Both the position numbers and the translations under genes were made by a program. From assembly GCA_047947115.1 (NCBI GenBank), contig CP170459.1:2016001-2080000 (forward strand): DNA of 64,000 nt, given 5' to 3'. The stretch's first letter is position 1. The number at the start of each line of letters is the position of its first letter. The notes under the pieces are model-generated. The model saw only the letters and a program-made list of their open reading frames with translations, was not told the origin of the DNA and did not search any database. This DNA is from Verrucomicrobiota bacterium (lineage in GTDB: Bacteria; Verrucomicrobiota; Verrucomicrobiia; Limisphaerales; AAA164-E04). Positions 8,512 to 62,086 of the stretch are shown in pieces.

Positions 8512-10611
8512 ATGACACCATCGCAACAGCAACGAATCAAATCATCGACATCCATGTTTGCAAGTTTCCTGCTCTGCTTCTTCGTGGTGTCCTCTGGTGG
8601 GGGAACAACTGCGGACTTCAAGTTCTTGCAGCCTTTCGATGCAGGTGGGGCGGTCATTGACGCCGTGGTAAGTGCGGAAAGATCCGACCGCAATGACATG
8701 GTGCGTTCTTCGTTCGGTCCGCTGCAGGTTGAAAATCGATGGGACGTTGGGGAGATGTCCGATGAGGAGCAGCTTTATTTGGAATTGGTGAATCGAGCAC
8801 GTGCTAGCCCTGCGGCTGAGGGGGATTGGTTGGTGGACACCGGTGACAAAGACATTCTTTCTAACCTATCCTTTTTCAATGTGGATCTTGATCGAGTGTT
8901 GAACGATCCCGATTACGGGTTTTACCAGTTGGCTTCAGCGCCACCACTGGCTCCCAATGCCAGGTTGAATCAAGCGGCCAGGAAACACGCCCGGGACATG
9001 TTTGAGAACACGTTCCAAGCTCATGTGGGCAGCGATGATTCCACTGCTGGGGATCGGATCTCGTCGGTGGGATATAATTGGGGGGCTTACAGTGAGAATG
9101 TTTTCGCCCAGGCGGATTCAGTTGTCCACGGTCATGCTGGATTTCAAATTGATTGGGGTTTTGGTCCCGGTGGTGTTCAAAATCCTCCCGGTCATCGTAT
9201 TCAGATTCACAACGGTAATTATCGGGAATTCGGAGTGGGTGTAGTGAAAGGCAATAAACTCAATATGTTTCCCGATAGCAATGATCCAAAATACCGAAAT
9301 GTCGGTCCGCAGTTGGTGGCGCAGTTGGTGGCAAGGGAGTTCATTGACGGGCCATTTATTACTGGAGTCGCGTTTTACGATTTCAATGGAAATGCCTTTT
9401 ACGATTTGGGTGAAGGATTGGGGGGGGTCGCTGTGACAGTCCCGGGGAGCCTGTATCATGCCGTGACCGCCTCTTCCGGCGGGTATGCCATCCCTGTGGA
9501 TACGAACGGGAATTACTCCATCGGCATGGAAGGAGTGGGGCTGCCAAGTCTGACCTCTTCGGTCGTTGTTGCCAACAGAACCAATGTTAAAAAGGATTAC
9601 ATAGTGGATTACGCGCCAAGCGTGACGGGACCCTTAAAGCCTGTCCCCGGATTGCCCGCGACTTATCAGGTCAACCGCTTGCCTTTGGCTGAGAAATATC
9701 AAATCGAGCGGAACATCAGTGCCCCATTCACCGCAACCGAGGGTGGCGAGCAGGGGATGGATGAATTCAACTATGTGGGTATCGGTTCCTATACAGTGCT
9801 TCAATCGGTCATTACACACGCAGGAACCCATGCATTTCGTCTTGCACACAATGCTCCCATTGGTGATGAATTTCTGGAATGGAATCGAAATTTTGTGGTC
9901 AGTCCCGATGCTTCCATAACGTTTCAAAGTCGGTTGGGAAGTGCTTTTGAAAATGAGACCGCTTCCTTTCAGGTGAGTCCTAATGATGGAAAGAATTGGC
10001 ATTCGTTATGGACACAGGTCGGCACGTCATTAAACAGTAATCCGGTACTTGCACCTTCCGAGAGGGCATTCTCTCCGCGCGTCATCGATTTGAGTGATTT
10101 TGAAGGGCAAACCATCCGTGTTCGTTGGGTGTTTGAATTCACCAGGGGGCGTGTTTGGGTGGGCAGCGATGAGTTCCAGGGAACTGGGTGGTATATTGAT
10201 TCGATCAGCGCTACCGGATTGAAGTCTCTCGAAAGTACCGTATTTCCGGAGCAACCTGGAAACTCATTCACCATCACGCCTGAATCGACAGAACCCTTCA
10301 CACTCAGAGGGCGCGCTTTTATCAAAGGAGAGTGGCGCCCCTGGGGTGATCGTACGGCGGTCGGCGATTCGAGTTCCCAACTTGGTGCGCGCATTTTGGG
10401 AGTGAGCCAAAGTGGATCTCTCATGACAGTTCAACTTGAAATCCCGGGTGGAAATGGATCAGCCGTTTTTGAGTCGGCTAGTGCACTGAGTGGTCCATGG
10501 CTTCCGGCGGTTCCTGTATCTGTGGATCCGGGGCAACAACAAAATGTTCTGCACATCACCTTGGAAATCGGAACGGATGCTAATCGTTTTTTTCGAATCC
10601 ATACCGAGTGA
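8512..10611 (+). CDS. Secreted CAP (SCP) domain protein with beta-rich C-terminal domains and terminal RFFRI module
   Basis: EQLYLELVNRAR, LNQAARKHARDM, H.GSD, GHR...REFGVG CAP motifs; hydrophobic N-terminus. Confidence 0.82.
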   Translation: MTPSQQQRIKSSTSMFASFLLCFFVVSSGGGTTADFKFLQPFDAGGAVIDAVVSAERSDRNDMVRSSFGPLQVENRWDVGEMSDEEQLYLELVNRARASPAAEGDWLVDTGDKDILSNLSFFNVDLDRVLNDPDYGFYQLASAPPLAPNARLNQAARKHARDMFENTFQAHVGSDDSTAGDRISSVGYNWGAYSENVFAQADSVVHGHAGFQIDWGFGPGGVQNPPGHRIQIHNGNYREFGVGVVKGNKLNMFPDSNDPKYRNVGPQLVAQLVAREFIDGPFITGVAFYDFNGNAFYDLGEGLGGVAVTVPGSLYHAVTASSGGYAIPVDTNGNYSIGMEGVGLPSLTSSVVVANRTNVKKDYIVDYAPSVTGPLKPVPGLPATYQVNRLPLAEKYQIERNISAPFTATEGGEQGMDEFNYVGIGSYTVLQSVITHAGTHAFRLAHNAPIGDEFLEWNRNFVVSPDASITFQSRLGSAFENETASFQVSPNDGKNWHSLWTQVGTSLNSNPVLAPSERAFSPRVIDLSDFEGQTIRVRWVFEFTRGRVWVGSDEFQGTGWYIDSISATGLKSLESTVFPEQPGNSFTITPESTEPFTLRGRAFIKGEWRPWGDRTAVGDSSSQLGARILGVSQSGSLMTVQLEIPGGNGSAVFESASALSGPWLPAVPVSVDPGQQQNVLHITLEIGTDANRFFRIHTE

Positions 10612-10759
10612 TCGGGCAAATCTTGTTTCCGACAATGATTTGCGAGTCATCTGAATCTGTCGTTTAATCACCTCTCATGACATGTCGCGATTGACACCAT
10701 TAAAATTGCCGAGCACCCAAGTCTTGATTTTTGTACGCGATTCATGATGAGATGCGCCT

Positions 10760-12388
10760 ATGCAGATCCTTTCCATTAAAAATCATCGTCAGAGATCGGT
10801 GTTGTCGTGGGTTTTTTGTGCACTTATCGGTGTCTGGTTGGATGGGAAAGCAGCCGATCAGGGCAAACGTCCCAACATCCTGTTTGCCTTTGCAGATGAC
10901 TGGGGGCGGTATGCAAGTGCCTATGCTGCGGTGGATGGTCCGGGCACCATGAACGATGCCATTCAAACACCTCATTTCGACCGTGTCGCACGTGAGGGGG
11001 TTTTGTTCAAGAACGCGTTTGTGACCGCGCCTTCCTGCACACCTTGTCGTAGTTCACTGCTTTCCGGTCAATACTTCTGGCGAACAGGTCAGGGAGCTAT
11101 TTTGCAGGGTGCAAAATGGGATGCCAATATTCCTTCGTATCCGTTGATCCTGCATGATGTCGGGTATCATATTGGTGAAACGTATAAAGTATGGAGTCCC
11201 GGTTCTCCAGTGGATGCCCCTTACGGAGCGGGTAAGTATGCGTATCAAAGTGCGGGCGGCAAATTCAACCAGTTTTCGCAGAACGTCACCCAGATGGTGC
11301 GCCAGGGAAAATCGATAAAAGAAGCCAAACAGGTTCTTTACGACGAGGTCATGCGGAATTTTAACGACTTTCTGGAAGCTCGACCGGACGGTCAACCCTT
11401 CTGCTATTGGTTTGGACCCACTTTGGTCCATCGCAAATGGACCAAAGGTTCGGGCAAGGAATTTTGGGGGATTGATCCTGACGCATTGAAAGGAAAGATG
11501 CCGGCATTTTTACCCGACGTGCACGAAGTACGCCAGGATATGGCCGATTATTTCGGTGAGATCCAGGCGTTCGATGCCGCACTGGGACTGATGCTGAAGC
11601 GTCTTGAGGAAATGGGAGAGTTGGACAACACCTTGGTCGTTGTCAGCGGGGATCATGGTGCGCCCGGATTCCCGAACGGGAAATGCAATCTCTATGATTT
11701 TGGCGTTGGCGTTTCTTTGGCCGTACGTTGGGGGGATTTCAACGGTGGCCGGGTGGTCGAGGATTTCATCAACCTGATGGATCTGGCGCCTACCTTTTTA
11801 GAAGCCGCCGGCGCCAAAACTCCTTCTGTGATGACCGGACGCAGTTTCGTGTCCGCTCTCAAATCGGATCAATCCGGATGGATTGATCCGACCCGCAACT
11901 GGGTGGTGACCGGGCGCGAACGTCATGTGGCCATGTCGCGCGAGGGGTATGTGCCATATCCACAACGTGCCCTGCGAACACCGGACTTCCTCTATATCCT
12001 CAATTTCGAGCCCCATCGTTGGCCGATGGGGGATCCATTGCATATGGGGATGGATAAACGTCCCTCTCTGGAAGACCTCACCGAACGAACCTTCGTCACC
12101 TACGCCGACATGGATGCGAGCCCCACCAAAGCCTGGTTGTTTGATCACGAGTCAGATGCCTCATGGAAGTGGTATTACGATGTGGCATTTGGACGAAGAC
12201 CTTTTGTGGAATTATACGACTTGAAACGCGACAAAGATCAGATTCGTAACGTTGCTCAAAGCGTTGAATACGCAAGGGTGAGAGGGAAGCTCCATGAGCA
12301 GTTGATGACAGTCTTGCGCGATACCAATGATCCAAGGGTCACCCAGGAATCCCCTGTTTTTGAGCATGCACCATTTGCCGGAGAATAA
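10760..12388 (+). CDS. Formylglycine-dependent sulfatase (S1 family, sulfamidase-like)
   Basis: RPNILFAFADDWG, CTPCRSSLLSG (CxPxR), GDHG, GK.NLYD.G, ELYDL..D..Q..N. Confidence 0.93.
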   Translation: MQILSIKNHRQRSVLSWVFCALIGVWLDGKAADQGKRPNILFAFADDWGRYASAYAAVDGPGTMNDAIQTPHFDRVAREGVLFKNAFVTAPSCTPCRSSLLSGQYFWRTGQGAILQGAKWDANIPSYPLILHDVGYHIGETYKVWSPGSPVDAPYGAGKYAYQSAGGKFNQFSQNVTQMVRQGKSIKEAKQVLYDEVMRNFNDFLEARPDGQPFCYWFGPTLVHRKWTKGSGKEFWGIDPDALKGKMPAFLPDVHEVRQDMADYFGEIQAFDAALGLMLKRLEEMGELDNTLVVVSGDHGAPGFPNGKCNLYDFGVGVSLAVRWGDFNGGRVVEDFINLMDLAPTFLEAAGAKTPSVMTGRSFVSALKSDQSGWIDPTRNWVVTGRERHVAMSREGYVPYPQRALRTPDFLYILNFEPHRWPMGDPLHMGMDKRPSLEDLTERTFVTYADMDASPTKAWLFDHESDASWKWYYDVAFGRRPFVELYDLKRDKDQIRNVAQSVEYARVRGKLHEQLMTVLRDTNDPRVTQESPVFEHAPFAGE

Positions 12389-12496
12389 TGTCCGGTTGTC
12401 CGCTGCGGATCAGATGATCTCGAATAAGATGCAACGTCCTGCAGCGAGAAGGTTTCAAATTCCCTGTCTTACCCATTTGTCATTCCTGTGAACGAT

Positions 12497-13159
12497 ATGA
12501 GCCATTCTGAACATAAAGCGGTGATCTTCGACATGGACGGCGTGTTGACCGATTCCGAACCCCTTATCAATGAAGCTTCCGTCCTGATGTTTCAGGAACT
12601 GGGCGTCAAAGTTCAACCCGAAGATTTCTACCCCTTTGTCGGGACGGGCGAAAAACAATACATCGGCGGTGTGGCGGAGAAATACGGTGCCACGATCGAT
12701 TTGTTCGAGGCAAAAAAGCGTACCTATGAAATTTATCTGAAACTGGCTCCACGCAAATTAAAAAGCTTTCCAGGCGCGATTGAATTGGTTCATCAATGTC
12801 GTGCGAAGGGATGGAAAGTAGCGCTCGCATCCAGTGCCGACATGATCAAGATCGAAGCAAACCTGACTCAAATCGGTTTACCGGTTGACGAATGGGATGC
12901 CATTACGGGTGCGGATCACGTTGAACACAAGAAGCCGGCCCCCGATATTTTCCTGGCATCAGCCAAACAGCTCGGGGTGAAGCCCGAATATTGTGCGGTG
13001 ATTGAGGATGCCGAACATGGTGTGCAAGCAGCCAAGGCGGCCGGTATGCGTTGTGTTGCCGTGATGCATACGTTTGCGGAAAATAAGTTGGGTCGCGCTG
13101 ATTTGATTAAATCTCACATCAAAGATATTGATCTTAGGGATCTTTTTGGGGACGAATGA
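12497..13159 (+). CDS. HAD-superfamily phosphatase (subfamily IA)
   Basis: IFDMDGVLTDSE, LASS, KKPAPDIF, IEDAEHGVQAAKAAGM. Confidence 0.92.
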   Translation: MSHSEHKAVIFDMDGVLTDSEPLINEASVLMFQELGVKVQPEDFYPFVGTGEKQYIGGVAEKYGATIDLFEAKKRTYEIYLKLAPRKLKSFPGAIELVHQCRAKGWKVALASSADMIKIEANLTQIGLPVDEWDAITGADHVEHKKPAPDIFLASAKQLGVKPEYCAVIEDAEHGVQAAKAAGMRCVAVMHTFAENKLGRADLIKSHIKDIDLRDLFGDE

Positions 13160-13417
13160 AGCGGTGGATTGAGGCGAGCGAGTGTGTAGATCAAACTGGG
13201 TGCACAACTGAAAAGGTGGCGCCCCGCTGCTTTGGGGCCGACGGCGCGTTGAGGTTTGCGAAAACCTGCCGTGTTGAAAGAATACGCCACCGGACGCGCA
13301 GCAGTGCATCTCTACCAAACTGCAGTCGGCATCCCGGCAATCTGAATCGCTCCCATTCACTCAAGCCTTCCCACACCTTTGCTTGTGTCCTGCCTCTGAT
13401 CCATCTATGATGCGCCC

Positions 13418-15568: not shown

Positions 15569-15627
15569 TCAGGGTTTGGCAAAGTTTCAAAGGAAAAACC
15601 AGGGCACAGGCAGGTCCGGTCTTGATT

Positions 15628-16140
15628 ATGAATACAACTAACAATTTTAAGAATTGGTTGGCGGTTGCTATGACAACTTTGAGTGTCGCAACCTGGATCC
15701 TCGCGACAGGATGCGGGGGTGTTTATTCCTCCATCGAAGAAGATGTTCATTCCGATGCGCTGGTTGTGGTTCATGATAATAATTTTGCAGCCAAAGTTCT
15801 TGAATCCGATCAACCCGTCATGGTTGATTTCTGGGCTACCTGGTGTGGTCCCTGCCGTCAAATGGCACCTCTGATATCCCAACTTGCAGATGAATATGAA
15901 GGACGGGCTGTTGTAGCCAAATTGGATGTCGACCGAAGCGCGGTCATTCCGAAACAATACGGCATCATGGCCATCCCGACATTCATCGTGTTCCATCGAG
16001 GCAAAGAAGTGGCTCGTTATGAGGGGATGACTTCTTATAAGGGGCTCAGCTCCATGCTTGAAAAACCGATGGGTTCCGAACCTCAGACACCAGAACCCGG
16101 ACCGGTTCCCGAAACGCCTTCTGCTGAAGAAGCCCTGTGA
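15628..16140 (+). CDS. Thioredoxin with N-terminal lipoprotein-like signal
   Basis: VDFWATWCGPCR, YGIMAIPT; N-terminal hydrophobic stretch ending LATG-C. Confidence 0.88.
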   Translation: MNTTNNFKNWLAVAMTTLSVATWILATGCGGVYSSIEEDVHSDALVVVHDNNFAAKVLESDQPVMVDFWATWCGPCRQMAPLISQLADEYEGRAVVAKLDVDRSAVIPKQYGIMAIPTFIVFHRGKEVARYEGMTSYKGLSSMLEKPMGSEPQTPEPGPVPETPSAEEAL

Positions 16141-16982
16141 CCGCTGAATCCGCACACACACCTCCGGCGCCTTCTGTCATCGGCCTGATAGCGGGTGGCC
16201 TGTCGTTGCCCATTGAGTTGGTGAAATTATTGCGTGCCGCCGGTTCGTCAAACATCGTGGTGGTGGCTTTTGACGGGGAAACCGATCAGGTGATAGAGTC
16301 ACTGGCGGATGAGATCGCCTGGATCAAGGTGGGTCAGCTCACCAAAATGATCCGCTTTTTCAAACAGCATGGCGTCACACAATGCTTCATGGCGGGCCGC
16401 ATCGCTCCGAAGAACCTGTTTGATGTGCGTCCCGATTTACGGGCTGCTTCACTCCTGTTTCGACTCAAAGAAAAGAACGCACATACCATCTTTGGCGGCA
16501 TTGGAGATGAATTGAAAAAAGATGGCATCGAACTGATTGAAGCTGTCCCCTGGCTCAAACCTTTGATGCCGGTTGAGGGTTTTTCAATCGGCAAGCAGAT
16601 GAAACCCACCCAACACGATGATGTCGCGTATGGATTTCGAATTGCCAAAGAAGTCAGTCGACTGGAAATCGGGCAAAGTATTGTTGTCAAAGACGGCACC
16701 GTGTTGGCGGTTGAGGGATTCGAAGGAACCGATGCTTGTCTGAAACGGGGAGGCCAACTTGCGGGCAAAAAGGGGGGAGCCATTGGCATCAAGGTTGCCA
16801 AACCCGGCCACGATATGCGATTTGATATTCCATGTATCGGGTTGCAGACCATCGAAAACTGTATACAACATCAGTTCCGAGCCCTTGCCTTCGAAGCCGG
16901 TAGCATCATCCTGCTCGAAAGAGAAGCCATCGAGCGCCGCATCAAAGGAGAATCCTTCACCCTCCTATCCACACAAGATTGA
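16137..16982 (+). CDS. lpxI: UDP-2,3-diacylglucosamine diphosphatase, LpxI family
   Basis: IGLIAGG..LP, EIGQSIVVKDG.VLAVEGFEGTD, KVAKPGHDMRFDIPCIG. Confidence 0.9.
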   Translation: MTAESAHTPPAPSVIGLIAGGLSLPIELVKLLRAAGSSNIVVVAFDGETDQVIESLADEIAWIKVGQLTKMIRFFKQHGVTQCFMAGRIAPKNLFDVRPDLRAASLLFRLKEKNAHTIFGGIGDELKKDGIELIEAVPWLKPLMPVEGFSIGKQMKPTQHDDVAYGFRIAKEVSRLEIGQSIVVKDGTVLAVEGFEGTDACLKRGGQLAGKKGGAIGIKVAKPGHDMRFDIPCIGLQTIENCIQHQFRALAFEAGSIILLEREAIERRIKGESFTLLSTQD

Positions 16983-17136
16983 CAAACAGGCAGAACGTGG
17001 CATCCCGCCGCGTCCTCATGGCGATCGATCCCCCAAAAAAACTTTCGGCGGCAATCCCCAAACCTCCCCCTGTAGAAGGCATGAACACTTTTGGGAAATC
17101 AAAAAATGCCCATAGCCAGATCTCTTCCACAAGGGA

Positions 17137-17994
17137 TCAGCGGAGTCGATAAAAGCGTTTGGGCCGGGTGATTTTCTCTTGGTGATATCCGGGTTCTTCG
17201 GTTGGTAGAGTCGTCCATGGACCGGACAGGTTTTCGGATGTTTCCAGCATGCGTCCAGGTTCCCACTTCAGGCGCAACATGCCCTTTTCAATTTCGTAGC
17301 TTGAGAATTGTTGGTTTGCGGCATGGTCTTGTGCCCATTGATCCAACATCGGTGTCAGGGTAACACGCCACAGCCTGTAGCCACCCGAGTTCATGTGCAA
17401 CCTGTCGCTCAGAAAGAGCTGTGGGTAGGGTTGCCCCGCTTCGTCCACCATCGGAGTATAGATGTCGAAATAATATCCCCCATTGACTTCCGCCAATTCC
17501 GAAAGGCATTGGTTCAGTTGCTTCATTTCTTCAAGCAGATGGCGGCGGGCAGGACTCGGTTTGACCGACATGAATGCAAAAGAACTTCCTGGGAGTTGGG
17601 ATTTCATCCGTTGGATGAAGGTTGCATAATCCGCCGAAACTTCCTCAACCGTGCGCCCACCCGCCAGATCATTATCCCCTTCATACACCACCACCAGGGA
17701 AGGCTTATAAGGAACCACCAGTCGATCGAAATAGTGAAGCAGGTCGGGCATGGTCGATCCCCTGAACCCTCGGTTGAGCACGGGAAAGTTGGGGAATGAA
17801 GATGTCAAATTGCTCCACAGTCGAATACTGGATGAACCGACAAATAGAACCGAATGATCAGCGGCCACGCTCGTGTGATCTGATTGCTCAAATGCTTTGA
17901 TGTCACTCTCAAATCGCGTCGGATCCTGTCCCATCAGTGAGGACAAACTGAGGAAGATGCGGGTCATGATCAGAATTAAAATGGGGCGCTGCAT
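17137..17994 (-). CDS. Secreted SGNH/GDSL hydrolase with terminal RFYRL module
   Basis: FVGSSSIRLW, NRGF.GS, YEGDND, SDRLHMN..GY (catalytic DxxH). Confidence 0.9.
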   Translation of the reverse strand: MQRPILILIMTRIFLSLSSLMGQDPTRFESDIKAFEQSDHTSVAADHSVLFVGSSSIRLWSNLTSSFPNFPVLNRGFRGSTMPDLLHYFDRLVVPYKPSLVVVYEGDNDLAGGRTVEEVSADYATFIQRMKSQLPGSSFAFMSVKPSPARRHLLEEMKQLNQCLSELAEVNGGYYFDIYTPMVDEAGQPYPQLFLSDRLHMNSGGYRLWRVTLTPMLDQWAQDHAANQQFSSYEIEKGMLRLKWEPGRMLETSENLSGPWTTLPTEEPGYHQEKITRPKRFYRLR

Positions 17995-18001
17995 GGTGGG
18001 G

Positions 18002-18038: not shown

Positions 18039-18054
18039 GACTGGTAATATGGAA

Positions 18055-20679
18055 TTATCGAATCACCCTGAAGAATCGGGCGGGCTGATCTGCCGTTAGT
18101 TGAACTTCACCCGAATCGCTGTTCAATGTGATTGTCTGGGCATCGGTCCATTCCATGAAATCTTCGGTTGATTGGATGGTATAGGTTTGTCCTGACTTTC
18201 CATGAACCGTAAATTTCAGGTTGCCGCCATCGCTGCTTACGCTGCTGATGGAAACTTCTTCCACGCCAGGAAGCCCTCCTTCCCAGTCTATTTGAAGAGC
18301 GCCCAGATAGGTGAAATGATTGCCGTTGTCGTTGTTGGGCCCGGGAGCGATATTGATGGTGATGGTGCCGTCTGAAGCCGGTTTCATGTTTTCGGCAATC
18401 GCTGTGCTATCAATATTACCTGCGACGTTCAGGTAAGTGATTGATTCGTTGCTTCCCGTGACCTTGTATTCGGTTTCCCGATTGTCGGTGGCGTTGCGTG
18501 ATCCATAAAAGGTCAGTGTGTAAGCGGTCGCAGGGTCGAGTCCTGTCAGTTGAAAACTGGGAAACACATCCACCAGTCCACTCCATTCCTCACTGTTTCC
18601 AAAAAGTGAATCCTGAGTGACGGTTGTGGGGTAGGGGGCCGCTTCAGTGGTTCCCGCCTGATTGACGCCGTTGAAACGTGCGAGCATTTGAATGCCGAAG
18701 CCTGTGTTCACGCCATTTACCGCAAGCAATCCGCTCAGCATCCCATTGTCCGTTTGGCCCACCGAGCCTTGGAAGTTGTTCCAGATATTCCCGTCAGCGT
18801 CTGCCACGGTTGCAAAGTCCGTGCCTCCCGCATCGATGAGAATCTGAGGTTTGAAGCTGGGCTGCCAATCGACGCGCATCGCGCCAAGGTATGTGAAGTG
18901 GTTGCCGTTGGTATTGTTGGGGCCGGGGCCCATTTCAATCAGGATTTCTTTGTTGGCGTCCGGGCGGATGTTTGAAACGGTGACGGTGCCGTCTGCATTG
19001 GAGGCTACGTTCAGATCTCCGGTTTTTGAATTGTTACCGGTAACGGTGTACCTTGTTTCACGGTTGTCGCCTGCTTCTCTGGAACCGAAAAAGGTGAAAT
19101 CATAGGCATTGTCAGCATCCAATCCGGTTAATTTGAAAGCGGGAAACACGTTTTCCTGTCCGCCGAATGGTTCGGTGTTGCCAAATAAAGAATCAGCGGT
19201 GGCTGATGCGGGGAACAGGGTGGAGGTTTGCAGTCCGGCTCGATTGACCCCGTTGAATCGTGAGACCATTTCAAGGCCGATATTAGTGCGGATGAATTCG
19301 GTTGAGATCAGACGTTCCATCTTGCCGTCGTTGGTGAGTCCGATCGATTCTTCGACATTGTTCCAACTTTCGGGTTCGGTTTGAACATCGATTTCCGTGG
19401 TGGTGCCGCCACCAAAATCAAAAAGATAGGTCAGGTTTTCACTCGGTGATTCGATCTTCAGAACCCCCAGATAAATGAAGTGATTCGCGTTGTTGTTGTT
19501 TGAGCCGGGCGTCATGTCCACCTGGATTTCCCCGAGGGAATTGGGCTGGATGCCGGCTGCGGTAACTGTTTCCGCAATGTTGTCGGCGACATTCAACGCC
19601 ACTTCTGCTGTGGAGGCTCCCGTCAGGGTGTAAAGCGTTTCGCGATTGTCTCCCGCCAGTCGGGATGCGTAAAAAGTGATGTCGTAACTTTTGGCGTCAT
19701 CCAATCCGCCAATGATGAAACTCGGAAGTATGTCCTCCAACCCGCTGAACACTTCCACATTTCCAAAAAGCGAATCAGAAGTCGCTGTCGCCGGAAAAAT
19801 GCCCGAGTCTGAAGTCCCAGATTGGTTGACTCCGTTGAATCGTGACAACATTTCTATGTACATGTTTGAAGAGTTGCCTTTTGTGGATACGACACCTTCG
19901 AAAATACCGTCATCGGTCTGTCCGACAGTGCCTGTGAAATTGTTCCACTGGATGGATTCTCCATCGGCGACCACCGTGGTTGTGGCGTCGTTGGCTCCAA
20001 AATCGATGAGAGCTGCCCAGCCGGCGGATGATTCGATCCCGAGAACACCAAGGTAGATGGTGTCGTTCCCGGCCGCATGGTTGCTGCCTTTGGTGAGGGT
20101 GATGAGGATCTCACCGAATCCATCCAAACCAATGCCCTCTGCTTGAACAGTGTTGTTGACGTTGCCTGAAGGATTCAGGGACACGGTCTGTGTGGTTGCC
20201 CCGGCCACGCGATATTGGGTTTCCCGGTTGTCTGTCGCTGTTGTGTCGGAGGCGTAGAAAGTCAGTGTATAGGTATCGCTGGAACCTTCGGTCCCGATAA
20301 TTGCCAGCGACGCTCCGCCCGAGTTGCGAATGAGTGAATCCGAACTGGCGGACGCGGGAAAGGTCGATGAACCGGTTGTTCCATCTGTATTGGGGGCGGC
20401 TTCAAAGAGCTGGTCAATCAGCAGGGCAATCCCTGTGTCGTTTCCCTCGGTGTCTGAAATAGGAATGTTGTCGAAGAAGCTGGAACCCGTGTCAGCATCG
20501 ACATTGTTCCAGAAGACCGGAGGTCGGGCGGTCTGATTGTCTCCTCCACCAAAGTCAAACAAGAGGGATTGAGTCTGGGCGAATGTTTGGATGTTCGCCT
20601 GCGTACAAAAGCAACTGATGATCACGGCATATAAAAGCCGACTTAGATGGTAATCATTGATATTCATTGTGTCTTTCAT
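18055..20679 (-). CDS. Secreted protein with four tandem ~185-aa beta-rich repeats and terminal RFFRV module; function unknown
   Basis: Signal peptide; repeats of DFGG...WNN...DSL...Y..TFY.SR..DNRET.Y...LNVA.N...NHF.YLG.L.I. Confidence 0.85.
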   Translation of the reverse strand: MKDTMNINDYHLSRLLYAVIISCFCTQANIQTFAQTQSLLFDFGGGDNQTARPPVFWNNVDADTGSSFFDNIPISDTEGNDTGIALLIDQLFEAAPNTDGTTGSSTFPASASSDSLIRNSGGASLAIIGTEGSSDTYTLTFYASDTTATDNRETQYRVAGATTQTVSLNPSGNVNNTVQAEGIGLDGFGEILITLTKGSNHAAGNDTIYLGVLGIESSAGWAALIDFGANDATTTVVADGESIQWNNFTGTVGQTDDGIFEGVVSTKGNSSNMYIEMLSRFNGVNQSGTSDSGIFPATATSDSLFGNVEVFSGLEDILPSFIIGGLDDAKSYDITFYASRLAGDNRETLYTLTGASTAEVALNVADNIAETVTAAGIQPNSLGEIQVDMTPGSNNNNANHFIYLGVLKIESPSENLTYLFDFGGGTTTEIDVQTEPESWNNVEESIGLTNDGKMERLISTEFIRTNIGLEMVSRFNGVNRAGLQTSTLFPASATADSLFGNTEPFGGQENVFPAFKLTGLDADNAYDFTFFGSREAGDNRETRYTVTGNNSKTGDLNVASNADGTVTVSNIRPDANKEILIEMGPGPNNTNGNHFTYLGAMRVDWQPSFKPQILIDAGGTDFATVADADGNIWNNFQGSVGQTDNGMLSGLLAVNGVNTGFGIQMLARFNGVNQAGTTEAAPYPTTVTQDSLFGNSEEWSGLVDVFPSFQLTGLDPATAYTLTFYGSRNATDNRETEYKVTGSNESITYLNVAGNIDSTAIAENMKPASDGTITINIAPGPNNDNGNHFTYLGALQIDWEGGLPGVEEVSISSVSSDGGNLKFTVHGKSGQTYTIQSTEDFMEWTDAQTITLNSDSGEVQLTADQPARFFRVIR

Positions 20680-20697
20680 GGCTGACTAAAAAGCTGC

Positions 20698-24630: not shown

Positions 24631-25644
<1,014 letters not shown>

Positions 25645-38743: not shown

Positions 38744-39063
38744 GTAGCCGCCTTCGCAAGAAGGTGGTCAAGTGTGTCTATATATTCCCAAAAATCCTTT
38801 GAACCCCTTTGGAAATCCACGCTTTTGGAAGCGCGGCTACGTAGCCGCCTTTGCGAAAAGGTGGAGGAGCGCATTCGAATGGGTCGGTAGGGTCCTCTGG
38901 TGTTGGGGTGATTCTGCCACGCTTTTGGAAGCGCGGCTACGTAGCCGCCTTTGCAAAAAGGTGGAGGAGCGCATTCGAATGGGCCGGTAGGGTCCTCTGG
39001 TGTTGGGTGATTCTGCCACGCTTTTGGAAGCGCGGCTAGGTAGCCGCCTTTGCAAAAAGGTGG
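38744..39063. repeat. BIME-like array of alternating GTAG-type REP palindromes, period ~100 bp
   Basis: GTAGCCGCCTT(C/T)GCnAnAAGGTGG at 38744, 38841, 38941 and 39040, alternating with inverted CCACGCTTTTGGAAGCGCGGCTA(C/G) at 38817, 38917 and 39016. Confidence 0.88.
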
Positions 39064-39122
39064 TTTCCGTGAATGTCCAGATTGTGCTTGGCCAGGAGTG
39101 GATTGTAGGAGATACAGGGTTG

Positions 39123-41768
39123 ATGCTTCGTGTTTTTCTCTGTTGGTTGTGCTTGGTTTCGAGTCTGGCTTGCTTTGCTGAGCCACGGGTTCTTCATGTT
39201 CAGTGGCTTGCCAATGGTTTGCTTGAGCTTGAAGTTCGGGTGGACGACCTTTCAGAAGATCCTGTTTTTGCTGTGGTATGGAGTCAGGATTTGGCAGCGC
39301 CCTTGGCTTCCTGGGAACAATCGGACATTCAAGGACAACAGCTTTCCGATGACGGTTTATGGTTGGTCCAGGTCGAGGCATTTGGTTCGGGGCAGGCGTT
39401 TTATCGGATCATCCAGACAGATGGTCTGACGACTTCTTCTCCCATCGTTCTCTCTGAAATCTGCTCTTCCAATGCCGCGATTTTGATGGATGAAGACGGC
39501 GATTACTCGGATTGGATCGAGCTTTGGAACGGTGGTGATTCTATCGTTTCCTTAAATGGTTGGTCGTTATCCGACAGGGTCGATCCGCAGGATGCCTGGT
39601 TGTTTCCCGATGTCACCTTGGAGCCGAAGGAATACCTGCTGATTTTCGCATCAGGTAAGGATCGCCGTTTGGTGATTGATTCATTACACACATCTTTCAG
39701 GATCAATGCAGATGGTGAACCGGTTGTATTGCGTGATGCCGAAGGCAGGTTGGTGGATGCGGTTCGGTTGGGGGCGCTTGAGCAGGATGCCAGCCTGGGG
39801 CGTTCGGGCATGGATGGTTCTCAGTGGTTGGTGTTCGATGGGGATGCGGTCACTCCCGGAACATTGAATCGGGATGCGGGGGTTCTATTTGTTGAGCAAC
39901 CGGAACCCAGCTTGCAGCCGGGATTTTACGATCGTTCGATGACCTTGAATTTCGGAACCTTAATGGCGGGATTGACCGTATATTATACGGTGAACGGAGA
40001 TGATCCGTTGGACAATGGAGTGGAATTCGAAATTCCACTGAAGTTGGAGCAGACATCCGTAGTGCGAGCGGTGGCTGTGAATGCCCATGGCGATCGGAGC
40101 GAGGAGATGACGGGAACATACTTTATCGGGGATCGCCCCACTTTGGCGGTTGTTTCTCTGGCGGCCCCGGCGAGTCATTTTGAGATCCGGGACGGGTATC
40201 TTTACGGATTTGGAGAACACATGTTCGGGCGAAGAGGGACTGTGACCGCCAATTTTCCTTATTCGGCTTCCAACGCATGGAAGGACCGCGAAGTTCCGAT
40301 TTCTTTTGAGTTGTTCGAACCGGATGGGACTCGCGGTTTTCAGCAGGAGCTTGGAATTAAAGTCTTTGGCGGATGGGGATCGCGTGGATATCCCCAGAAA
40401 TCCCTGGCATTCTTCGCAAGAGCCGAATACGGGAAAGGAAAAGTGCGTTATCCGTTGTTTCCGGATTCGGATATCGATGCTTTCGAGTCTTTTGTTTTGC
40501 GCAATTCCGGCAATGATAATCAGAGCACACATCACATTCCACCCCGATCCGAGATTACTGCTTTTGGTCGACCGCAATCGAATGGAAGTTACTTTGTAAA
40601 TGGTAACTATACCTTGATGCGTGACGCCATGATGCAACGACTTGCCGCCAATTTACAGGTGGATCGACAGGCATATCGTCCGGTGATTGTTTACCTGAAC
40701 GGCGAGTATTGGGGGATTTACAATCTACGTGAAAAGTTGAATGAGCATTACGTGGCATCGCATTATGACCTGGAAGCGAATGAGATTGATTTGATTGAGG
40801 GTTATGGAACGGCCAATAGCGGAAGTTCCAGCCAGTACAGCGCGATGCGAAATTACATGGAAAGCTTGTCGCTGGCATCCGAGGATCGATATGCTCGGGT
40901 GGTTGACAACTATCTGGATGTCCAGAGTTTCACGGACTATCACCTGGCAGTCATCTATTTTCAAAACTTTGATATCGGCAACATCAAACAATGGCGTGCC
41001 CGGCGCGGGGGGAAGTTTCGCTGGATGCTCTATGATCAGGACTACGGATTCAACCTATGGAAACGGGAGGTATATCTGCCTGCCATGCGGCGTGATTTCG
41101 CGGATTACGACAACATGTTTGATTTCCACACCAACGCATCCGGTAACGGCACAGGATGGCCCAACTCAGGTGGGCGGACCATGATGCTGCGTAAGATGCT
41201 TGAGAATGATGGTTTTCGCACTCAGTTCATTAATCGTTGTGCTGATTTGTTGAATACCGATTTTGAAAGTGAAAGGGTTGTCGGTGTCATCGAAGAAATG
41301 GCAGCCGTCATCCGGCCGGAAATCCCTCGTCATTTGGCAAGGTGGAGTTGGGGGGCGTTGCTTGAACGCAACCACGGATCGCCCTTTGATGAAGAAGACG
41401 AGCCTCTGTCCATTGAACAGTGGGAATCCCATGTTCAGGGTTTGAAAGAATTTGCACGGGAACGTCCCGAAAAACTGCGTCACGATCTTATGTCGCATTT
41501 CGGTATGACCTCGGGCATATACCGCTTGCAAGTTCAAGTCGAGCCACCTGAGGCTGGGGTGGTTCATATTAACTCCACAACGCATCACGAGCTTCCATTA
41601 TCTGAGGGTATTTACTTCAGTGATGTTCCGATAGGATGTGTGGCTGAGGCTTCCGATGGGTATCGGTTTAAGGAATGGGCTCCGTCAGGCCAGACGACAG
41701 AGCTGATCCAGTTGCACCACCCGGAAGTAGCACTCGTTCAGCTCAAAGCCATCTTCACTCCTCAATAA
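39123..41768 (+). CDS. Secreted CotH-kinase-family protein with lamin-tail and Fn3-like domains
   Basis: LSEI..SN...DEDGDYSDWIELWN (LTD), PGFY...YYT.NG.DP, G..SR..PQKS, LRNSGND, YLNGEYWGIYNLREK, W.LYD.D.GF. Start moved downstream of the REP array. Confidence 0.88.
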   Translation: MLRVFLCWLCLVSSLACFAEPRVLHVQWLANGLLELEVRVDDLSEDPVFAVVWSQDLAAPLASWEQSDIQGQQLSDDGLWLVQVEAFGSGQAFYRIIQTDGLTTSSPIVLSEICSSNAAILMDEDGDYSDWIELWNGGDSIVSLNGWSLSDRVDPQDAWLFPDVTLEPKEYLLIFASGKDRRLVIDSLHTSFRINADGEPVVLRDAEGRLVDAVRLGALEQDASLGRSGMDGSQWLVFDGDAVTPGTLNRDAGVLFVEQPEPSLQPGFYDRSMTLNFGTLMAGLTVYYTVNGDDPLDNGVEFEIPLKLEQTSVVRAVAVNAHGDRSEEMTGTYFIGDRPTLAVVSLAAPASHFEIRDGYLYGFGEHMFGRRGTVTANFPYSASNAWKDREVPISFELFEPDGTRGFQQELGIKVFGGWGSRGYPQKSLAFFARAEYGKGKVRYPLFPDSDIDAFESFVLRNSGNDNQSTHHIPPRSEITAFGRPQSNGSYFVNGNYTLMRDAMMQRLAANLQVDRQAYRPVIVYLNGEYWGIYNLREKLNEHYVASHYDLEANEIDLIEGYGTANSGSSSQYSAMRNYMESLSLASEDRYARVVDNYLDVQSFTDYHLAVIYFQNFDIGNIKQWRARRGGKFRWMLYDQDYGFNLWKREVYLPAMRRDFADYDNMFDFHTNASGNGTGWPNSGGRTMMLRKMLENDGFRTQFINRCADLLNTDFESERVVGVIEEMAAVIRPEIPRHLARWSWGALLERNHGSPFDEEDEPLSIEQWESHVQGLKEFARERPEKLRHDLMSHFGMTSGIYRLQVQVEPPEAGVVHINSTTHHELPLSEGIYFSDVPIGCVAEASDGYRFKEWAPSGQTTELIQLHHPEVALVQLKAIFTPQ

Positions 41769-52612: not shown

Positions 52613-52623
52613 GGGTTTGATGG

Positions 52624-55158: not shown

Positions 55159-55225
55159 GATGCAAACATTTCCAATGAAAAGTTGATAAGAACCGCAAAG
55201 GTCATCAAGCAACTGGATGCAATTG

Positions 55226-57706: not shown

Positions 57707-57715
57707 GGCATTCCA

Positions 57716-58999
57716 TCAAGAAAAGGTTCCGGTACTGGTGCCAAAGGAATCGACTTCCATTCCCATCTTCTGAGCAATGTCGAGGTAAAGATTGCAAAGT
57801 GGCAGTTTGTCACCTCTCTCTTCTGTCACATTACGGAAAGATCCATGATGGTATCCCCCTCCGGCGAGAATGATGGGCAGGTCGGTGTTCTTATGTGAAT
57901 TTCCATCGCCCATGCCACTGCCAAACAGGACCGTTGTTGAATCCAGCAGGGAACCTTCCCCGCATTGCTTGTTGGCCAATTGGGTCAGGAAGTGGCCAAA
58001 GTGCTTTATTTGATAACGTTCCAGTTTAATCAGATTTGCGATCGTTTCCTCGTCATTGCCATGATGAGACATGCTGTGATATCCACGATCGATGCCCAGG
58101 TGCTGCGGCAGGAAACTTCCCCCGATTTCAAGAGTCGCCACCCGGGTGGAATCGGTTTGCAGGGCAAGTGCGATCAACTCATATAGCAAAGGTAAATCAT
58201 CGACAGTGTTTTTATTGTCTGGTCGGTCGAATGGAGCTTCCGGCTTGGGGTGTGCCGTCCACCTTTCGCGTAATTCCAAACGTTTTTCCACATCACGCAA
58301 AGAAGTGAAATACTCGTCCAATTTCTCCCGATCTTCTTGATTCACTTTGGTCGACAGTCTTTTTGCTTGCTCCCGGACCGCATCGAGAATGGAGCCCTGA
58401 ATTTGGTTCTGACGTCGTTTTTGGATCTGGGTTTCCTTTGAATCGGAAATAAAAATCTTTTCAAACAATTCGGCAGGCCCGGTGATTGGAGGCACACGCA
58501 CACCCGACCGTGTCCAGGCAATCTGGCATCCCCCATGAATGCCGCCCTCTGAGCCGACGGTCAATGACGGAAAACGCGTCTGCATTCCCAGGGAGTCGGC
58601 AATGAACTGGTCGATGGTGACATTTCCATCCGGCATGTCCTTGGCCTCGTGGTGGAGCACTCCTGACAGAAAGGTGTGCACCGCAAAATGCCCGCCTTTC
58701 AGTCCATGATCGAGCCCCCTGTAAACAGTGAACTGTGATCGGTTCGATTCCAGAGGCTCCAGTAAAGGGGTGGATGGGTATGCTTCTCCGGTTGAATCCG
58801 GGAAAAAACTTTCCCTCTGAAAACCAAGCAAATTGCCAATCGCAACAAAACGACGAGCGCCTTCTCCCGCGCCTTTGAATGTCTGGACGGCCTCACCATT
58901 TCCTATAGAACTGGCTGTCAACGAGGGGAGGCAAGGCAGGGATAAAGAAGCCCCCAAGGAGTTCAACACGAAGCGGCGACGAGACATTTTTGAATTCAT
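57716..58999 (-). CDS. DUF1552 family protein
   Basis: SRRRFVL...GASLSLPCLPS, TIDQ.IA....QTRFPSL, SILDAV, LALQTDSTRV, YHSMSHH, LLDST.VLFGSGMGDGNSH...LP..LAGG. Confidence 0.9.
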   Translation of the reverse strand: MNSKMSRRRFVLNSLGASLSLPCLPSLTASSIGNGEAVQTFKGAGEGARRFVAIGNLLGFQRESFFPDSTGEAYPSTPLLEPLESNRSQFTVYRGLDHGLKGGHFAVHTFLSGVLHHEAKDMPDGNVTIDQFIADSLGMQTRFPSLTVGSEGGIHGGCQIAWTRSGVRVPPITGPAELFEKIFISDSKETQIQKRRQNQIQGSILDAVREQAKRLSTKVNQEDREKLDEYFTSLRDVEKRLELRERWTAHPKPEAPFDRPDNKNTVDDLPLLYELIALALQTDSTRVATLEIGGSFLPQHLGIDRGYHSMSHHGNDEETIANLIKLERYQIKHFGHFLTQLANKQCGEGSLLDSTTVLFGSGMGDGNSHKNTDLPIILAGGGYHHGSFRNVTEERGDKLPLCNLYLDIAQKMGMEVDSFGTSTGTFS

Positions 59000-59233
59000 A
59001 AGGATGGGTGCGTTGGGTTCACTCAAAATCAAATGGTTTGTTCAGACCCGGCATCATACAGGAATGGTTTTCGTTTCAGGATTCAATGGATCAAAACTGC
59101 ATGAATCCTTCGTTTTTTGCAAGTAAGTTTGGTTCAGTGAACTTGTTGAAGCCAAAGGAAACTTCACAGATCGTCGAAACGCTTGTTCATCCCCAAAAGG
59201 ACATCCGGTTCCACTTGATCGCGCAACTCTGCC

Positions 59234-62086
59234 TTGGGATGGCCCGGGGCTGACCTTCATGTCACGGAATGCGTTGGAGAACGAGGTGAGGGAGGTTTTG
59301 ACTTTTTTGCGAACCCTACTCCCGGAGGTCCGAACGACACCGCGCACGGTCTGCCGGTTTTGGAGCGGGTTGAATTCTTTCCTCCCAGCCGGACCTTTAC
59401 CGGTTCGCTTGAGTTATCCCTTTCTGGTGGTGTCGAAGGCGACGTGATTCGCTATACAACGAACGGTCAGATCCCGACTGAATCGTCCACGAGGTATAAC
59501 GGCAGCCCGATCATGCTGACCCGTAGCACACAGGTGCGTGCGAGACTATTTCGTACCCTGCGCGCAGCTGGCCCGGTGAGTTCAGGCGCTTGGACATCCA
59601 TTGATTCCAGCCTGCAAAACTTTACCTCGAACCTGCCTTTGATTGTTTTGGATAACTTCGACAGAGGCTCCGTCACCAGCGGCCCCGATCCGGAACCAGG
59701 CTACTTCACGCTATTGCAACCAATCGAAGAAGGCATCACTCAATTGGTTGGTGCGCCCCAGGACGCGCATCGTATGGGATTCAAACGTCGTGGCGCCAGT
59801 ACGTTAAACGATGCCAAAGGAAACTACCGGATTGAATTCCGGCAGCAGGACAGTGAGGAAGATCAAAACGTCAATTTGCTGGGGCTTTCAAAACATCCGG
59901 AATGGATTCTGTTTGCTCCATACCGTTTTGATCGTTCCCTCGTTCGAATCCCTTTCATTCATCAACTCAGCAACAACATTGGTGAATACGCTCCACGATC
60001 TGTTCCTGTGGAGGTTTTTCTCAGCACCAGTGGCGGTCGGGTCAGTGAAAGCGATTATCAGGGAGTTTACGTGCTCCAGGAACGGATTTCGCGGGATAAG
60101 GACCGGGTAGACATCTCCCGACTCGGACCCGAAGATACCGAAGAACCGGATGTCACCGGCGGATACATTCTGAGCATTGACCGTCGCGATCCCGGAGACA
60201 ATGGTTTCCGCTCAAGCCTGGGACATCCAGAAGATCCCGCCATTGCCGGTCCCCAACCCTGGTTCAACTTTGTCTATCCCAAGGAATCCAACATCCTTCC
60301 GGAGCAGCGTGACTATATCATGGGATACATCGACGAAATGGAATCCGCACTCTACTCCCCCAACTTCAAAGATCCAATGGAGGGTTATGCCAATTGGATC
60401 GATGTGGATTCCTTCATTGGGCATCACCTCCTGGTTACCTTCACCAAAGATCCCGATGCGCTGCGCCTCAGCACATACATGAATAAACCGCGGAATGAGA
60501 AGCTGCGAATGGGGCCGATCTGGGATTTCGACCGAACCATGGGGAATGACGCGGACGGTCGCTCCGGGAACCCGGAAGGGTGGGATCCCCCGTTTGAGAC
60601 GGCTCAGTTTTTCCTATACGATTGGTGGGGGCAGCTCTTTAAGGATCCAAATTTTTTCCAGGCTTGGATTGATCGCTGGCAAGCATTGCGCGAAAGTGAG
60701 ATGAGCGACACAAAGCTCACGGAACTGGTGAGCCACTTCGCCGTGCAGGTCGAAGCCACGCAGGAACGTAACTTTGTTCGTTGGCCCGAGGTTTCCCCAA
60801 ACGGCGGAGAATTTTCAAATCTGCCCGGATGGGAAGGGGAAGTGGATCATTTGAAACAGTGGCTGGTCCGGCGAGCGGCTTGGATTGACAGTCAGTTTCC
60901 CTCAAAACCGACATTCAGCCAGGCGGGTGGTTCATTCACGCCGGGCACCTTGCTTTCTATTTTTTCGACGGGGAACGATGTATACTACACGACAGACGAT
61001 ACGGACCCCAGAGCATCGGGAGGTTCCCCATCCAATACGGCAATCAAACAAACGTCTCCTGAATCAGCCTTCGAACTGAACCGGTCGGTTGTCATTACAG
61101 CTCGAGCCTTCAACGGAACCGACTGGAGCAGCCCGGTTCGCAGAGTCTTCGTCACGGGGGCAACGCCCTCCAAAGCAAACCTTGTCATCAGTGAACTCCA
61201 TTATCACCCATTGGACCCAACAGCGACCGAGATCGCCGATGGCTGCACGGATGCCGATATGTTCGAATTCATTGAGTTGACAAATATTGGCAATGAATCG
61301 CTTGATTTATCCGGCGTTCACTTCAGCGATGGCTTGGAGTTCGAGTTTGCACCGCAAGGATTGGGGGCCCCTGAGATGGCTCCTGGAGATTCTTTGGTGC
61401 TGGTAAAGAACCTGGAAGCATTCGAATCGAGGTATCATCAAAGCTTGGCGCGAATCCAAATAGGCGGAGTTTACAATCTGAACTTAAGTAATGGGGGAGA
61501 GCTGATTCAACTGCTCGATGCAAATGGAAATGAGATCCAAAGTTTCGCCTACGGAGATTCATCGCCCTGGCCCGACACCCCTGATGGTACCGGGCCAAGC
61601 CTGGTCTTAAGCGACGTCTGGACCAATCCTGATCCCTCCCTGCCGGAAAACTGGAAACCAAGTTTCAACTTCGGAGGCACTCCTGGTACGATCGAAACAG
61701 GAACAGGCGGTTTCACCGGAGATCCTTTCGCAGATACCGACGGCAACGGGTTTGCCGACCTTTTTGATTATGCCTTCGGCAGCTCTTCAAATCCCGGCCA
61801 ATTGACCTTGCCGACAGCTTTGATCGTTCGCATTCCTGACGAGATCGAAAACGCTGAATACTTTGCGATTCAATATCACCGGAATCCTGACGCAACAGAC
61901 CTGGGCTTCTCACTGGAAGGATCATCCGACATGCTCTCCTGGAACAGTGTTGATGAAGATTTTCAGCATATTGAATCCACGATCCAACCGGACAATACTA
62001 TTCGAGAAACATATCGCGCCCACACGCCCATTCTGCACGACGATCGCATGTTTATAAGAGTTGCCATCCACCTGAATCAGCCTTGA
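59234..62086 (+). CDS. CotH-kinase-family protein with Fn3-like and lamin-tail domains; N-terminus appears truncated
   Basis: Recognisable sequence begins at FFANPTPGGPN (typical LTD end); IRYTTNG..P, KRRGAST, Y.GVYVL.ERI, MGPIWDFD, LVISELHYHP...EFIEL.N; no signal peptide. Confidence 0.82.
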   Translation: MGWPGADLHVTECVGERGEGGFDFFANPTPGGPNDTAHGLPVLERVEFFPPSRTFTGSLELSLSGGVEGDVIRYTTNGQIPTESSTRYNGSPIMLTRSTQVRARLFRTLRAAGPVSSGAWTSIDSSLQNFTSNLPLIVLDNFDRGSVTSGPDPEPGYFTLLQPIEEGITQLVGAPQDAHRMGFKRRGASTLNDAKGNYRIEFRQQDSEEDQNVNLLGLSKHPEWILFAPYRFDRSLVRIPFIHQLSNNIGEYAPRSVPVEVFLSTSGGRVSESDYQGVYVLQERISRDKDRVDISRLGPEDTEEPDVTGGYILSIDRRDPGDNGFRSSLGHPEDPAIAGPQPWFNFVYPKESNILPEQRDYIMGYIDEMESALYSPNFKDPMEGYANWIDVDSFIGHHLLVTFTKDPDALRLSTYMNKPRNEKLRMGPIWDFDRTMGNDADGRSGNPEGWDPPFETAQFFLYDWWGQLFKDPNFFQAWIDRWQALRESEMSDTKLTELVSHFAVQVEATQERNFVRWPEVSPNGGEFSNLPGWEGEVDHLKQWLVRRAAWIDSQFPSKPTFSQAGGSFTPGTLLSIFSTGNDVYYTTDDTDPRASGGSPSNTAIKQTSPESAFELNRSVVITARAFNGTDWSSPVRRVFVTGATPSKANLVISELHYHPLDPTATEIADGCTDADMFEFIELTNIGNESLDLSGVHFSDGLEFEFAPQGLGAPEMAPGDSLVLVKNLEAFESRYHQSLARIQIGGVYNLNLSNGGELIQLLDANGNEIQSFAYGDSSPWPDTPDGTGPSLVLSDVWTNPDPSLPENWKPSFNFGGTPGTIETGTGGFTGDPFADTDGNGFADLFDYAFGSSSNPGQLTLPTALIVRIPDEIENAEYFAIQYHRNPDATDLGFSLEGSSDMLSWNSVDEDFQHIESTIQPDNTIRETYRAHTPILHDDRMFIRVAIHLNQP

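Follow-up and report, generated by a model that had tools for sequence, protein, structure and literature searches.

An uncatalogued terminal domain on exported proteins of Verrucomicrobiota and its link to an Amuc_1098-type secretin operon

Four proteins with unrelated bodies, encoded in a 64,000-nucleotide stretch of a Verrucomicrobiota genome (order Limisphaerales; assembly GCA_047947115.1, contig CP170459.1, positions 2,016,001 to 2,080,000; hereafter the window), end in a small module that closes on F(F/Y/I)R just before the stop. The module is a real, uncatalogued domain that is widespread in the phylum, and in its distribution it resembles a terminal domain of the kind used by the system for type IX secretion (T9SS). 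New here are its link to a secretin operon of the Amuc_1098-1101 (MUL2) type and its presence in genomes without GspD, the secretin of the system for type II secretion (T2SS). With a probability of about 0.4, the tail is a folded address tag that is read by a secretin machine, most likely one of the MUL2 type, for export to or display at the cell surface. This reading is based on the terminal position of the module, its selectivity, the extracellular type of its cargo, the secretin link, the carriers in genomes without GspD, and the precedent of the Pel3/PelI secretion signal.

One family of protein ends

The four proteins were singled out in an original prediction, made from the letters of the window, which took their ends for a lineage-specific secretion or surface-attachment tag. 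The open reading frames (ORFs) lie where they were placed and have the unrelated bodies assigned to them (CAP, GDSL/SGNH, four-repeat and CotH); five segments were spoken of for building a profile, and only four were named. Three of the ORFs have the signal-peptide-like starts that were claimed, and the CotH ORF as called has none. In window positions the carriers and their modules are as follows.

8512..10611, + strand: carrier 1, a 699-residue exported protein with a CAP domain (ORF and domain match)
10396..10608, + strand: terminal module of carrier 1, divergent core type (held-out profile E 0.026)
17137..17994, - strand: carrier 2, a 285-residue GDSL/SGNH hydrolase with a signal-peptide-like start (ORF and domain match)
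17140..17304, - strand: terminal module of carrier 2, short subtype of ~55 residues (held-out profile E 1e-5)
18055..20679, - strand: carrier 3, an 874-residue exported protein with four ~190-residue repeats and without a confident Pfam family
18058..18249, - strand: terminal module of carrier 3, core type (held-out profile E 2e-13; AlphaFold2 predicted local distance difference test, pLDDT, 94; fold comparison)
59234..62086, + strand: carrier 4, a 950-residue CotH kinase / Fn3-associated / LTD protein (ORF and domain match)
61802..62077, + strand: terminal module of carrier 4, long subtype of ~90 residues (long-subtype profile E 5e-10; hhalign to core)

Pairwise comparison of the four 80-residue tails gives no significant likeness (best E 3.7-4.6), so that their relationship is not demonstrable from the window alone and a genome-wide profile is needed. 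A core profile seeded on the four tails and iterated over the 28,428 six-frame ORFs of the genome (a single contig of 6.08 Mb, 95.8% complete) grew to 138 domains in 131 proteins, and reversed ORFs used as a control gave no match below E 1. When the four window tails are held out, a profile of 136 other copies recovers the tails of the 874-residue protein and of the GDSL hydrolase at the values listed, and that of the CAP protein at a value that ranges over 0.005-0.07 across iterations. The CotH tail is not matched by this profile (E 55); it is matched by a separate long-subtype profile made from seven other sequences, which hhalign aligns with the core profile (93.9%, E 1.6e-7 over 33 columns; 73.8%, E 2.9e-5 over 62 columns). 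On these sequence comparisons all four window tails are one family, with the CotH tail as a longer subtype. The claimed alignment of the segments thus stands at the level of profiles and falls at the pairwise level.

The motifs quoted in the original prediction are present, with W to F(F/Y/I)R spacings of 29, 20, 24 and 36 residues in the CAP, GDSL, 874-residue and CotH tails, but the start was set too late: the module begins upstream of the first quoted motif and measures ~55-92 residues overall. Its best-conserved positions are G24, Y27, E/Q30, S31, D34, L35, W38 and F63-Y/F64-R65, and the mean column identity of the alignment is 18%. In carrier 3 the four repeats match one another at E 1e-16 to 1e-55 when pieces are compared with phmmer, whereas BLAST of the whole protein found no internal repeats. 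In carrier 4 a DxDxNG calcium-binding-type motif precedes the module. A signal-like stretch lies just upstream of this ORF in another frame (window 59032-59260), and a frameshift from a one-base assembly indel is probably behind the missing signal peptide. The other CotH/LTD protein of the window (39000-41768, + strand) is without the module and offers a natural localisation control; a transposase-like ORF fragment, seen by eye, adjoins the carrier 4 gene (62487-63008, + strand).

Carriers in the genome

At least 137 proteins of the genome carry the module, as counted with the core and long profiles. The number is a lower bound because a one-profile search misses diverged tails: a single profile meant for every copy failed to find the CotH tail and the module-like tails, recognized by eye, of two pyrroloquinoline quinone (PQQ)-dehydrogenase/dihaem cytochrome proteins. 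The latter two proteins, like the multihaem cytochromes among the carriers, possibly take part in surface electron transfer. In a protein library the count of module matches is 60,531, an upper bound only, because of cross-matches to FN3 repeats and to a CBM32 motif; among the top 150 matches 140 were scored, 103 of these being of the FYR type and some being true FN3 repeat proteins.

The module lies within 15 residues of the stop in 121 of the 137 carriers, just behind the signal peptide in 7, and elsewhere in 9; by chance ~3.7 of 128 would be expected at the terminus. The idea of a terminal tag therefore holds for most carriers, but not for those with a copy behind the signal peptide, nor simply for a 3,021-residue S8 protease (L011, G000:C1:476355-485420) that has seven copies near its end; among public proteins, arrays of 8-10 copies occur (P0001, P0002). 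Signal peptides were scored with a home-made heuristic that is positive for 19% of 150 P-loop proteins and 88% of 25 sulfatases; by this crude test 93 of 128 carriers (73%) have a signal-peptide-like start; the share is 48% among other genes and 61% among genes of at least 500 residues. Other anchors are rare among the 128 carriers, with a lipobox in 5 and a later transmembrane helix in 7. Of 122 terminal modules, 17 follow a DxDx[DN]G motif.

Cargo domains in the 58 carriers scanned include S8, C11 and M10 peptidases, LamG, PA14, Ig, Calx-beta, CBM9, LRR, CotH, GDSL, multihaem cytochromes, among them an MtrC/MtrF-like one, and glutaminyl cyclase; 19 of the 58 have no Pfam match at 1e-6. This cargo appears to be extracellular in type, which speaks for an address tag. 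Within the same genome the module is found on none of 83 sulfatases, 31 DUF7133 proteins, 19 PSD cytochromes, 18 DUF1552 proteins, 22 FG-GAP/ASPIC proteins and 79 pseudopilin-like proteins. Since these large exported families are without it, the module marks a subset of exported proteins and not export as such.

The multihaem cytochromes with the module (L010, L013, L094) include proteins with 8 and 9 CxxCH motifs, one of them the MtrC/MtrF-like protein. The glutaminyl cyclase (L018, G000:C1:1023843-1024874) is itself a carrier, and Gln stands at the possible +1 site of 60 of the 93 signal-bearing carriers versus 23% of other genes, again by the crude test. This bias is reminiscent of the pyroglutamate (glutamine) rule of the Bacteroidota.

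The secretin operon

Machinery for the tag was said in the original prediction not to be identifiable in the window, and this is borne out; the candidate is found elsewhere in the genome, at one of its eight secretin loci. A run of genes there (G000:C1:5785517-5807850; L079, L089) encodes a PilM/Amuc_1101-like protein, an Amuc_1100-like protein, a 263-residue protein and an Amuc_1098-like secretin; the Amuc family matches score below the curated NCBIfam cut-offs. Directly after the secretin come a 638-residue carrier, a 491-residue protein, a 943-residue carrier and a carrier with an S8 protease domain. The genes for the 638-, 491- and 943-residue proteins are single-copy, and the 638-residue carrier is predicted to consist of a beta-propeller, an FN3 domain, a TSP3-like stretch and the module. 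The 491- and 943-residue proteins belong to no known family and are rich in TN dipeptides; solved structures searched by sequence yielded no match for the 491-residue or the 263-residue protein. The closest relatives of the secretin come from Pedosphaera and from Limisphaerales and Verrucomicrobiota metagenome-assembled genomes.

Gene order was compared in 79 loci of related secretins (L095-L173; 36-97% identity in the best segment). A carrier lies downstream of the secretin in 58 of the 65 loci with at least 3 kb of downstream DNA, nearly always with the same order of genes, and upstream in none of the 40 loci with at least 8 kb of upstream DNA, which establishes a conserved genomic link of the module to the Amuc_1098-type secretin within the order. 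For GspD, 20 control loci were picked from GspD-type matches in the same order, and a carrier was found downstream in 7 of 19, in varied arrangement and on varied strands, near the background chance of 31% for a carrier within 10 kb. The 491-residue gene (76 of 81 genomes of the order) and GspD-type secretins (79 of 81) are both near-universal there, so that neither discriminates within the order. Outside the order, in three genomes of family f4, the gene right after the secretin has the long subtype at its end; these three sequences were recognized by eye and seeded the long profile, so that their own scores are circular. In genome G081 two carriers follow the secretin at a short distance. 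A complex prediction with the module of the propeller protein, the N-terminal part of the secretin and the 263-residue protein scored 0.00 (mark 0.32) and counts neither way.

Across the order the conserved run holds Amuc_1101/1100/1099/1098-like genes ahead of the propeller, 491-residue, 943-residue and S8 protease genes, and exosortase, EpsI-like and WcaJ-like / sugar-transferase genes often precede it. In one group outside the class a ~680-residue membrane protein, STT3/oligosaccharyltransferase-like by eye, follows the Amuc_1098-type secretin (L185-L188, L190, L194, L197, L200, L204).

Spread in the phylum and the relation to GspD

The module is centred on the lineage, as had been proposed, with core-type matches in 81 of 151 genomes of the phylum; up to 38 candidates were scored per genome, and single weak matches may be cross-matches. 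The genomes are kin and the counts not independent, and no weight is put on P values. Full-length GspD is present in 59 of the 61 genomes that have at least three core-type matches, and in the two exceptions GspD is cut by contig ends. The long profile was run on 77 genomes (35 without GspD, 39 GspD-positive without a core match, and 3 controls); it has no match in the 39, and three to four matches in each of the four GspD-less genomes of genus g6, which would be Akkermansia-like to judge from family matches. All ten of the g6 proteins fetched end in the module, eight of them having a signal-peptide-like start, and they score with the core profile too (E 9e-5 to 0.04). Two g6 genomes, G063 and G087, each consist of one contig and hold exactly two secretins, both over the Amuc_1098 cut-off, one GspF/PilC-like gene, and 3 and 4 long-subtype matches, respectively. 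GspD is thus not required, because modules occur in genomes with only Amuc_1098-type secretins; a rule that the module occurs only with GspD fails overall and holds for the core subtype alone.

An Amuc_1098-type secretin is present in 127 of the 151 genomes. Among 80 module-positive genomes 74 have one at E<1e-45, and five of the other six, when rechecked, have a weaker form. Families f8 (0/4) and f11 (0/2) have neither the secretin nor the module, which is in favor of a secretin-read tag. Phylogenetic profiling, proposed in the original prediction as a way to co-occurring envelope genes, yields a close association of the core type with GspD that the long subtype in g6 does not share, and is blunted by the near-universality of the Amuc_1098-type secretin.

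Some GspD-type matches in many genomes of the order lie inside giant open frames of ~2,900-5,200 residues (e.g. G218:C25, G151:C16, G172:C8, G209:C11, G194:C60, G195:C63). A GspD-like secretin split into two adjacent genes (G000:C1:2365138-2367893) recurs in six related loci (L232-L238), so that the split looks conserved.

Predicted fold and probable origin

From an alignment of 119 copies AlphaFold2 predicts a six-stranded, all-beta domain with high confidence (the pLDDT listed for carrier 3), in line with the beta-rich module first proposed. The model aligns with strands A-F of FN3 domains, and its chain stops after F, with strand G absent. Matches to FN3 and Ig-like sandwiches reach Z 6-7.8 (best 7.5-7.8; root-mean-square deviation, rmsd, 2.0-2.5 over 61-68 residues), values that are generic; they include Tencon (Z 6.8, residues 3-74 of a 93-residue chain), neuroglian (Z 7.0) and 3mpc (Z 6.3). 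Foldseek gave no match to the predicted module at E<=0.001, and the VIA structure matches are likewise generic.

No family in Pfam (119 members searched) or NCBIfam (four tails, no matches) covers the module, in keeping with the view that it is not an already characterized domain, and PF00041 is not among the 25 Pfam families listed for the 119 members at E up to 0.1. None of the 30 nearest ESM Atlas clusters has a common Pfam family, and three of the nearest are of 65-71 residues and mostly from Verrucomicrobiota. The profile does cross-match true FN3 repeats, 3mpc among them (E 0.007), and a local motif of CBM32 (residues 58-115 of a 136-residue chain, E 2e-5; 8 of 119 members weakly). Identity with CBM32 / F5-8 type C was rejected, as only this local motif and not the full ~130-residue domain is matched. 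The module shares with FN3 the predicted A-F sandwich topology as well as these sequence cross-matches; it differs in having six predicted strands, ending after F, where FN3 has seven (A-B-C-C'-E-F-G), and in its almost always terminal position. The cross-matches suggest that the module is probably derived from FN3, and with such a derivation it may have a docking or accessory role.

Relation to known sorting systems

By the tests that were run the module is not a member of the T9SS C-terminal domain (CTD), PEP-CTERM or FN3 families. The type A CTD of T9SS (TIGR04183 / Por_Secre_tail) is likewise a small beta-sandwich, of ~70-80 residues, that ends many unrelated Sec-exported proteins, and in both cases a conserved protease and a propeller protein carry the domain next to the candidate machinery, as in the analogy with PorU and PorZ; the C-terminus of PorU is a generic fold match (Z 6.2). 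The module differs from the CTD in occurring also at the mature N-terminus and in arrays, in its six predicted strands and in its link to a secretin. TIGR04183 / PF18962 has no match in the genome (nor did any control genome exceed the cut-off) and is absent from the Pfam families of the 119 members; PorV has none either, with a positive Bacteroides control, and a search for SprA gave no match in the genome or in any control genome. PEP-CTERM, with exosortase, is likewise a C-terminal tag on many unrelated exported proteins of Planctomycetes-Verrucomicrobia-Chlamydiae bacteria. The module, predicted to be all-beta and soluble, lacks a PEP motif, a transmembrane helix and a basic tail, and without the helix it cannot work like PEP-CTERM. 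The genome has only two PEP-CTERM matches, neither of them a carrier, and two exosortases, one of which, with an EpsI-like gene, lies upstream of the secretin operon.

In the T2SS, loops 3 and 5 of the Fn3 domain of Pel3/PelI form a secretion signal that contacts GspC and GspD, and known signals are scattered and protein-specific, according to the available part of one account (PMC7949064). This domain, too, is an appendage of FN3 fold and matches the module at Z 6.3 (rmsd 2.4, 63 residues); it is seven-stranded, N-terminal, confined to one enzyme family and 2% identical to the module, and it works only together with signals of the catalytic domain, whereas the module is portable on more than 100 proteins and is found without GspD. 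In the Akkermansia MUL2 locus (Amuc_1098-1102) the secretin, Amuc_1100-like and PilM/Amuc_1101-like genes have the same order as here. According to the available text of the reports, no outer-membrane protein of A. muciniphila is more abundant than the Amuc_1098 secretin (PMC4960237), and MUL2 is a pilus/attachment locus that was not detected in Methylacidiphilales (PMC13174399). Here the locus continues into module-bearing genes, which those same portions do not mention for Akkermansia (PMC13174399, PMC4960237). Searches of a full-text literature collection that lacks most subscription papers showed no paper on the domain or on its link to the Amuc_1098 locus.

A proposed pathway and its alternatives

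On the address-tag reading, a Sec signal peptide, to judge from the crude test, would carry the cargo to the periplasm, where cargo and tag would fold. Periplasmic folding is suggested because cytochromes with 8 and 9 haems carry the module and c-type haem is attached in the periplasm. The tag would then be recognized as a shape, with the conserved positions of strand C, of the C-C' loop (E/Q-x-S-x-D-L..W) and of strand F (F-Y/F-R) as a putative recognition surface and with an open edge that the missing strand G would leave in the model; reading by shape would account for the copies at the mature N-terminus as well. The cargo would finally pass through, or dock at, the Amuc_1098-type secretin. 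PorZ and PorU are dedicated surface components of T9SS, and by analogy the propeller protein, the 943-residue protein and the S8 protease would be dedicated surface components here, the protease perhaps in a processing role. A fuller form of this proposal is somewhat less probable than the address tag itself: that the MUL2 pilus-type machine serves to export and display proteins, has a portable folded tag dedicated to it and is a counterpart of T9SS built on a secretin, in which the truncated FN3 module is the targeting domain and the propeller, 491-residue, 943-residue and S8 proteins form a surface processing complex in the order.

A number of observations weigh against a tag read by a MUL2-type secretin. 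In the available text of its reports MUL2 is a pilus/attachment locus and not a protein exporter (PMC13174399, PMC4960237). The enrichment of signal peptides among carriers is modest, and tandem arrays of 7-10 copies exceed what an address needs. Fifty-two genomes with an Amuc_1098-type secretin show no core-type module, and since the secretin is near-universal and often without the module the phylogenetic profile has little power. In three f18 genomes, which hold 9-15 modules, the Amuc_1098-like secretins are all diverged and an Amuc_1101-like PilM is missing at E<1e-15. Outside the order a carrier stands at 5 of 40 secretin loci (the core profile finding 2 of 39 and the eye three more), two g6 MUL2 loci that were inspected showed no carrier, and the 491- and 943-residue genes, considered as phylum-wide partners, gave only 1-2 weak matches in 150 genomes. 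The 79 loci are kin, so that the synteny may be inheritance alone, and the locus also holds housekeeping genes (5'-3' exonuclease-like, coaE). Finally, conservation of the module in the operon's propeller protein (32%) does not exceed that of the protein's other parts (31-48%).

A possible, if rather improbable, alternative is that the module acts after export by other signals, as a dockerin- or SLH-like docking or retention domain that binds a surface polymer, a scaffold or its own copies, self-binding being conceivable through pairing of an open edge strand. Such a role would suit a module that occurs at both the N- and the C-terminus of mature proteins and also in tandem arrays, that few carriers supplement with a lipobox or later helix, whose predicted fold is without strand G, that in some carriers follows DxDx[DN]G, and whose operon is often preceded by exosortase, EpsI-like and sugar-transferase genes; against it, no scaffold or complementary partner was identified, column identity is low, and docking on its own gives no reason for the fixed link to the secretin operon. 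The same link is left unexplained by a passive FN3-derived accessory, that is, a stabilizing cap, a spacer or a weak carbohydrate- or particle-binding domain, which is quite unlikely. In this case the module would be terminal because the modelled six-stranded sandwich would put both chain ends at one pole and, unlike seven-stranded FN3, could not be strung in line; yet tandem arrays with short linkers exist. The FN3 and CBM32 cross-matches, the generic fold matches and the many carbohydrate-binding carriers agree with an accessory, whereas the very different cargo, with cytochromes, proteases and glutaminyl cyclase, and the exclusion from large exported families such as sulfatases do not.

A canonical T2SS tag, read by GspC/GspD, appears equally unlikely. 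In the genome a gspE-F-G..K..D cluster has a carrier behind it, and the core type tracks GspD closely, with GspD cut by contig ends in the two exceptions. Shewanella MtrC is exported by T2SS. The Pel3/PelI signal, as described in the available part of its source (PMC7949064), is a precedent, and the Pel3 Fn3 domain a structural match at a generic Z. A T2SS-only reading, strong on the core type, is weakened by the real terminal modules of the four GspD-less g6 genomes, two of them single-contig; moreover, GspD loci are without a conserved link to carriers, the 39 GspD-positive genomes show neither subtype, and the genomes in which GspD and module coincide are kin.

Prepilin-type proteins

A prepilin-type protein with an H-X9-DG-like end is encoded in the window (3310-4104, - strand). 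About 79-85 H-X9-DG-like prepilin-type ORFs are present in the genome, and they could be adaptors for its eight secretin loci.

Significance

Verrucomicrobiota, to which the gut symbiont Akkermansia belongs, are major degraders of complex polysaccharides, and searches of the literature collection described above found no account of how proteins are selected for their cell surface. With a marker of ~70 residues, more than 130 likely extracellular proteins can be told from 83 sulfatases and other exported families, which provides an in-silico exoproteome. The g6 genomes, with three to four carriers and two secretins, make the sorting question small and directly testable. If the module is indeed a secretin tag, a T2SS/type IV pilus-type machine would have a signal that is both portable and family-wide, and the much-studied Amuc_1098-1101 locus would gain a new function.

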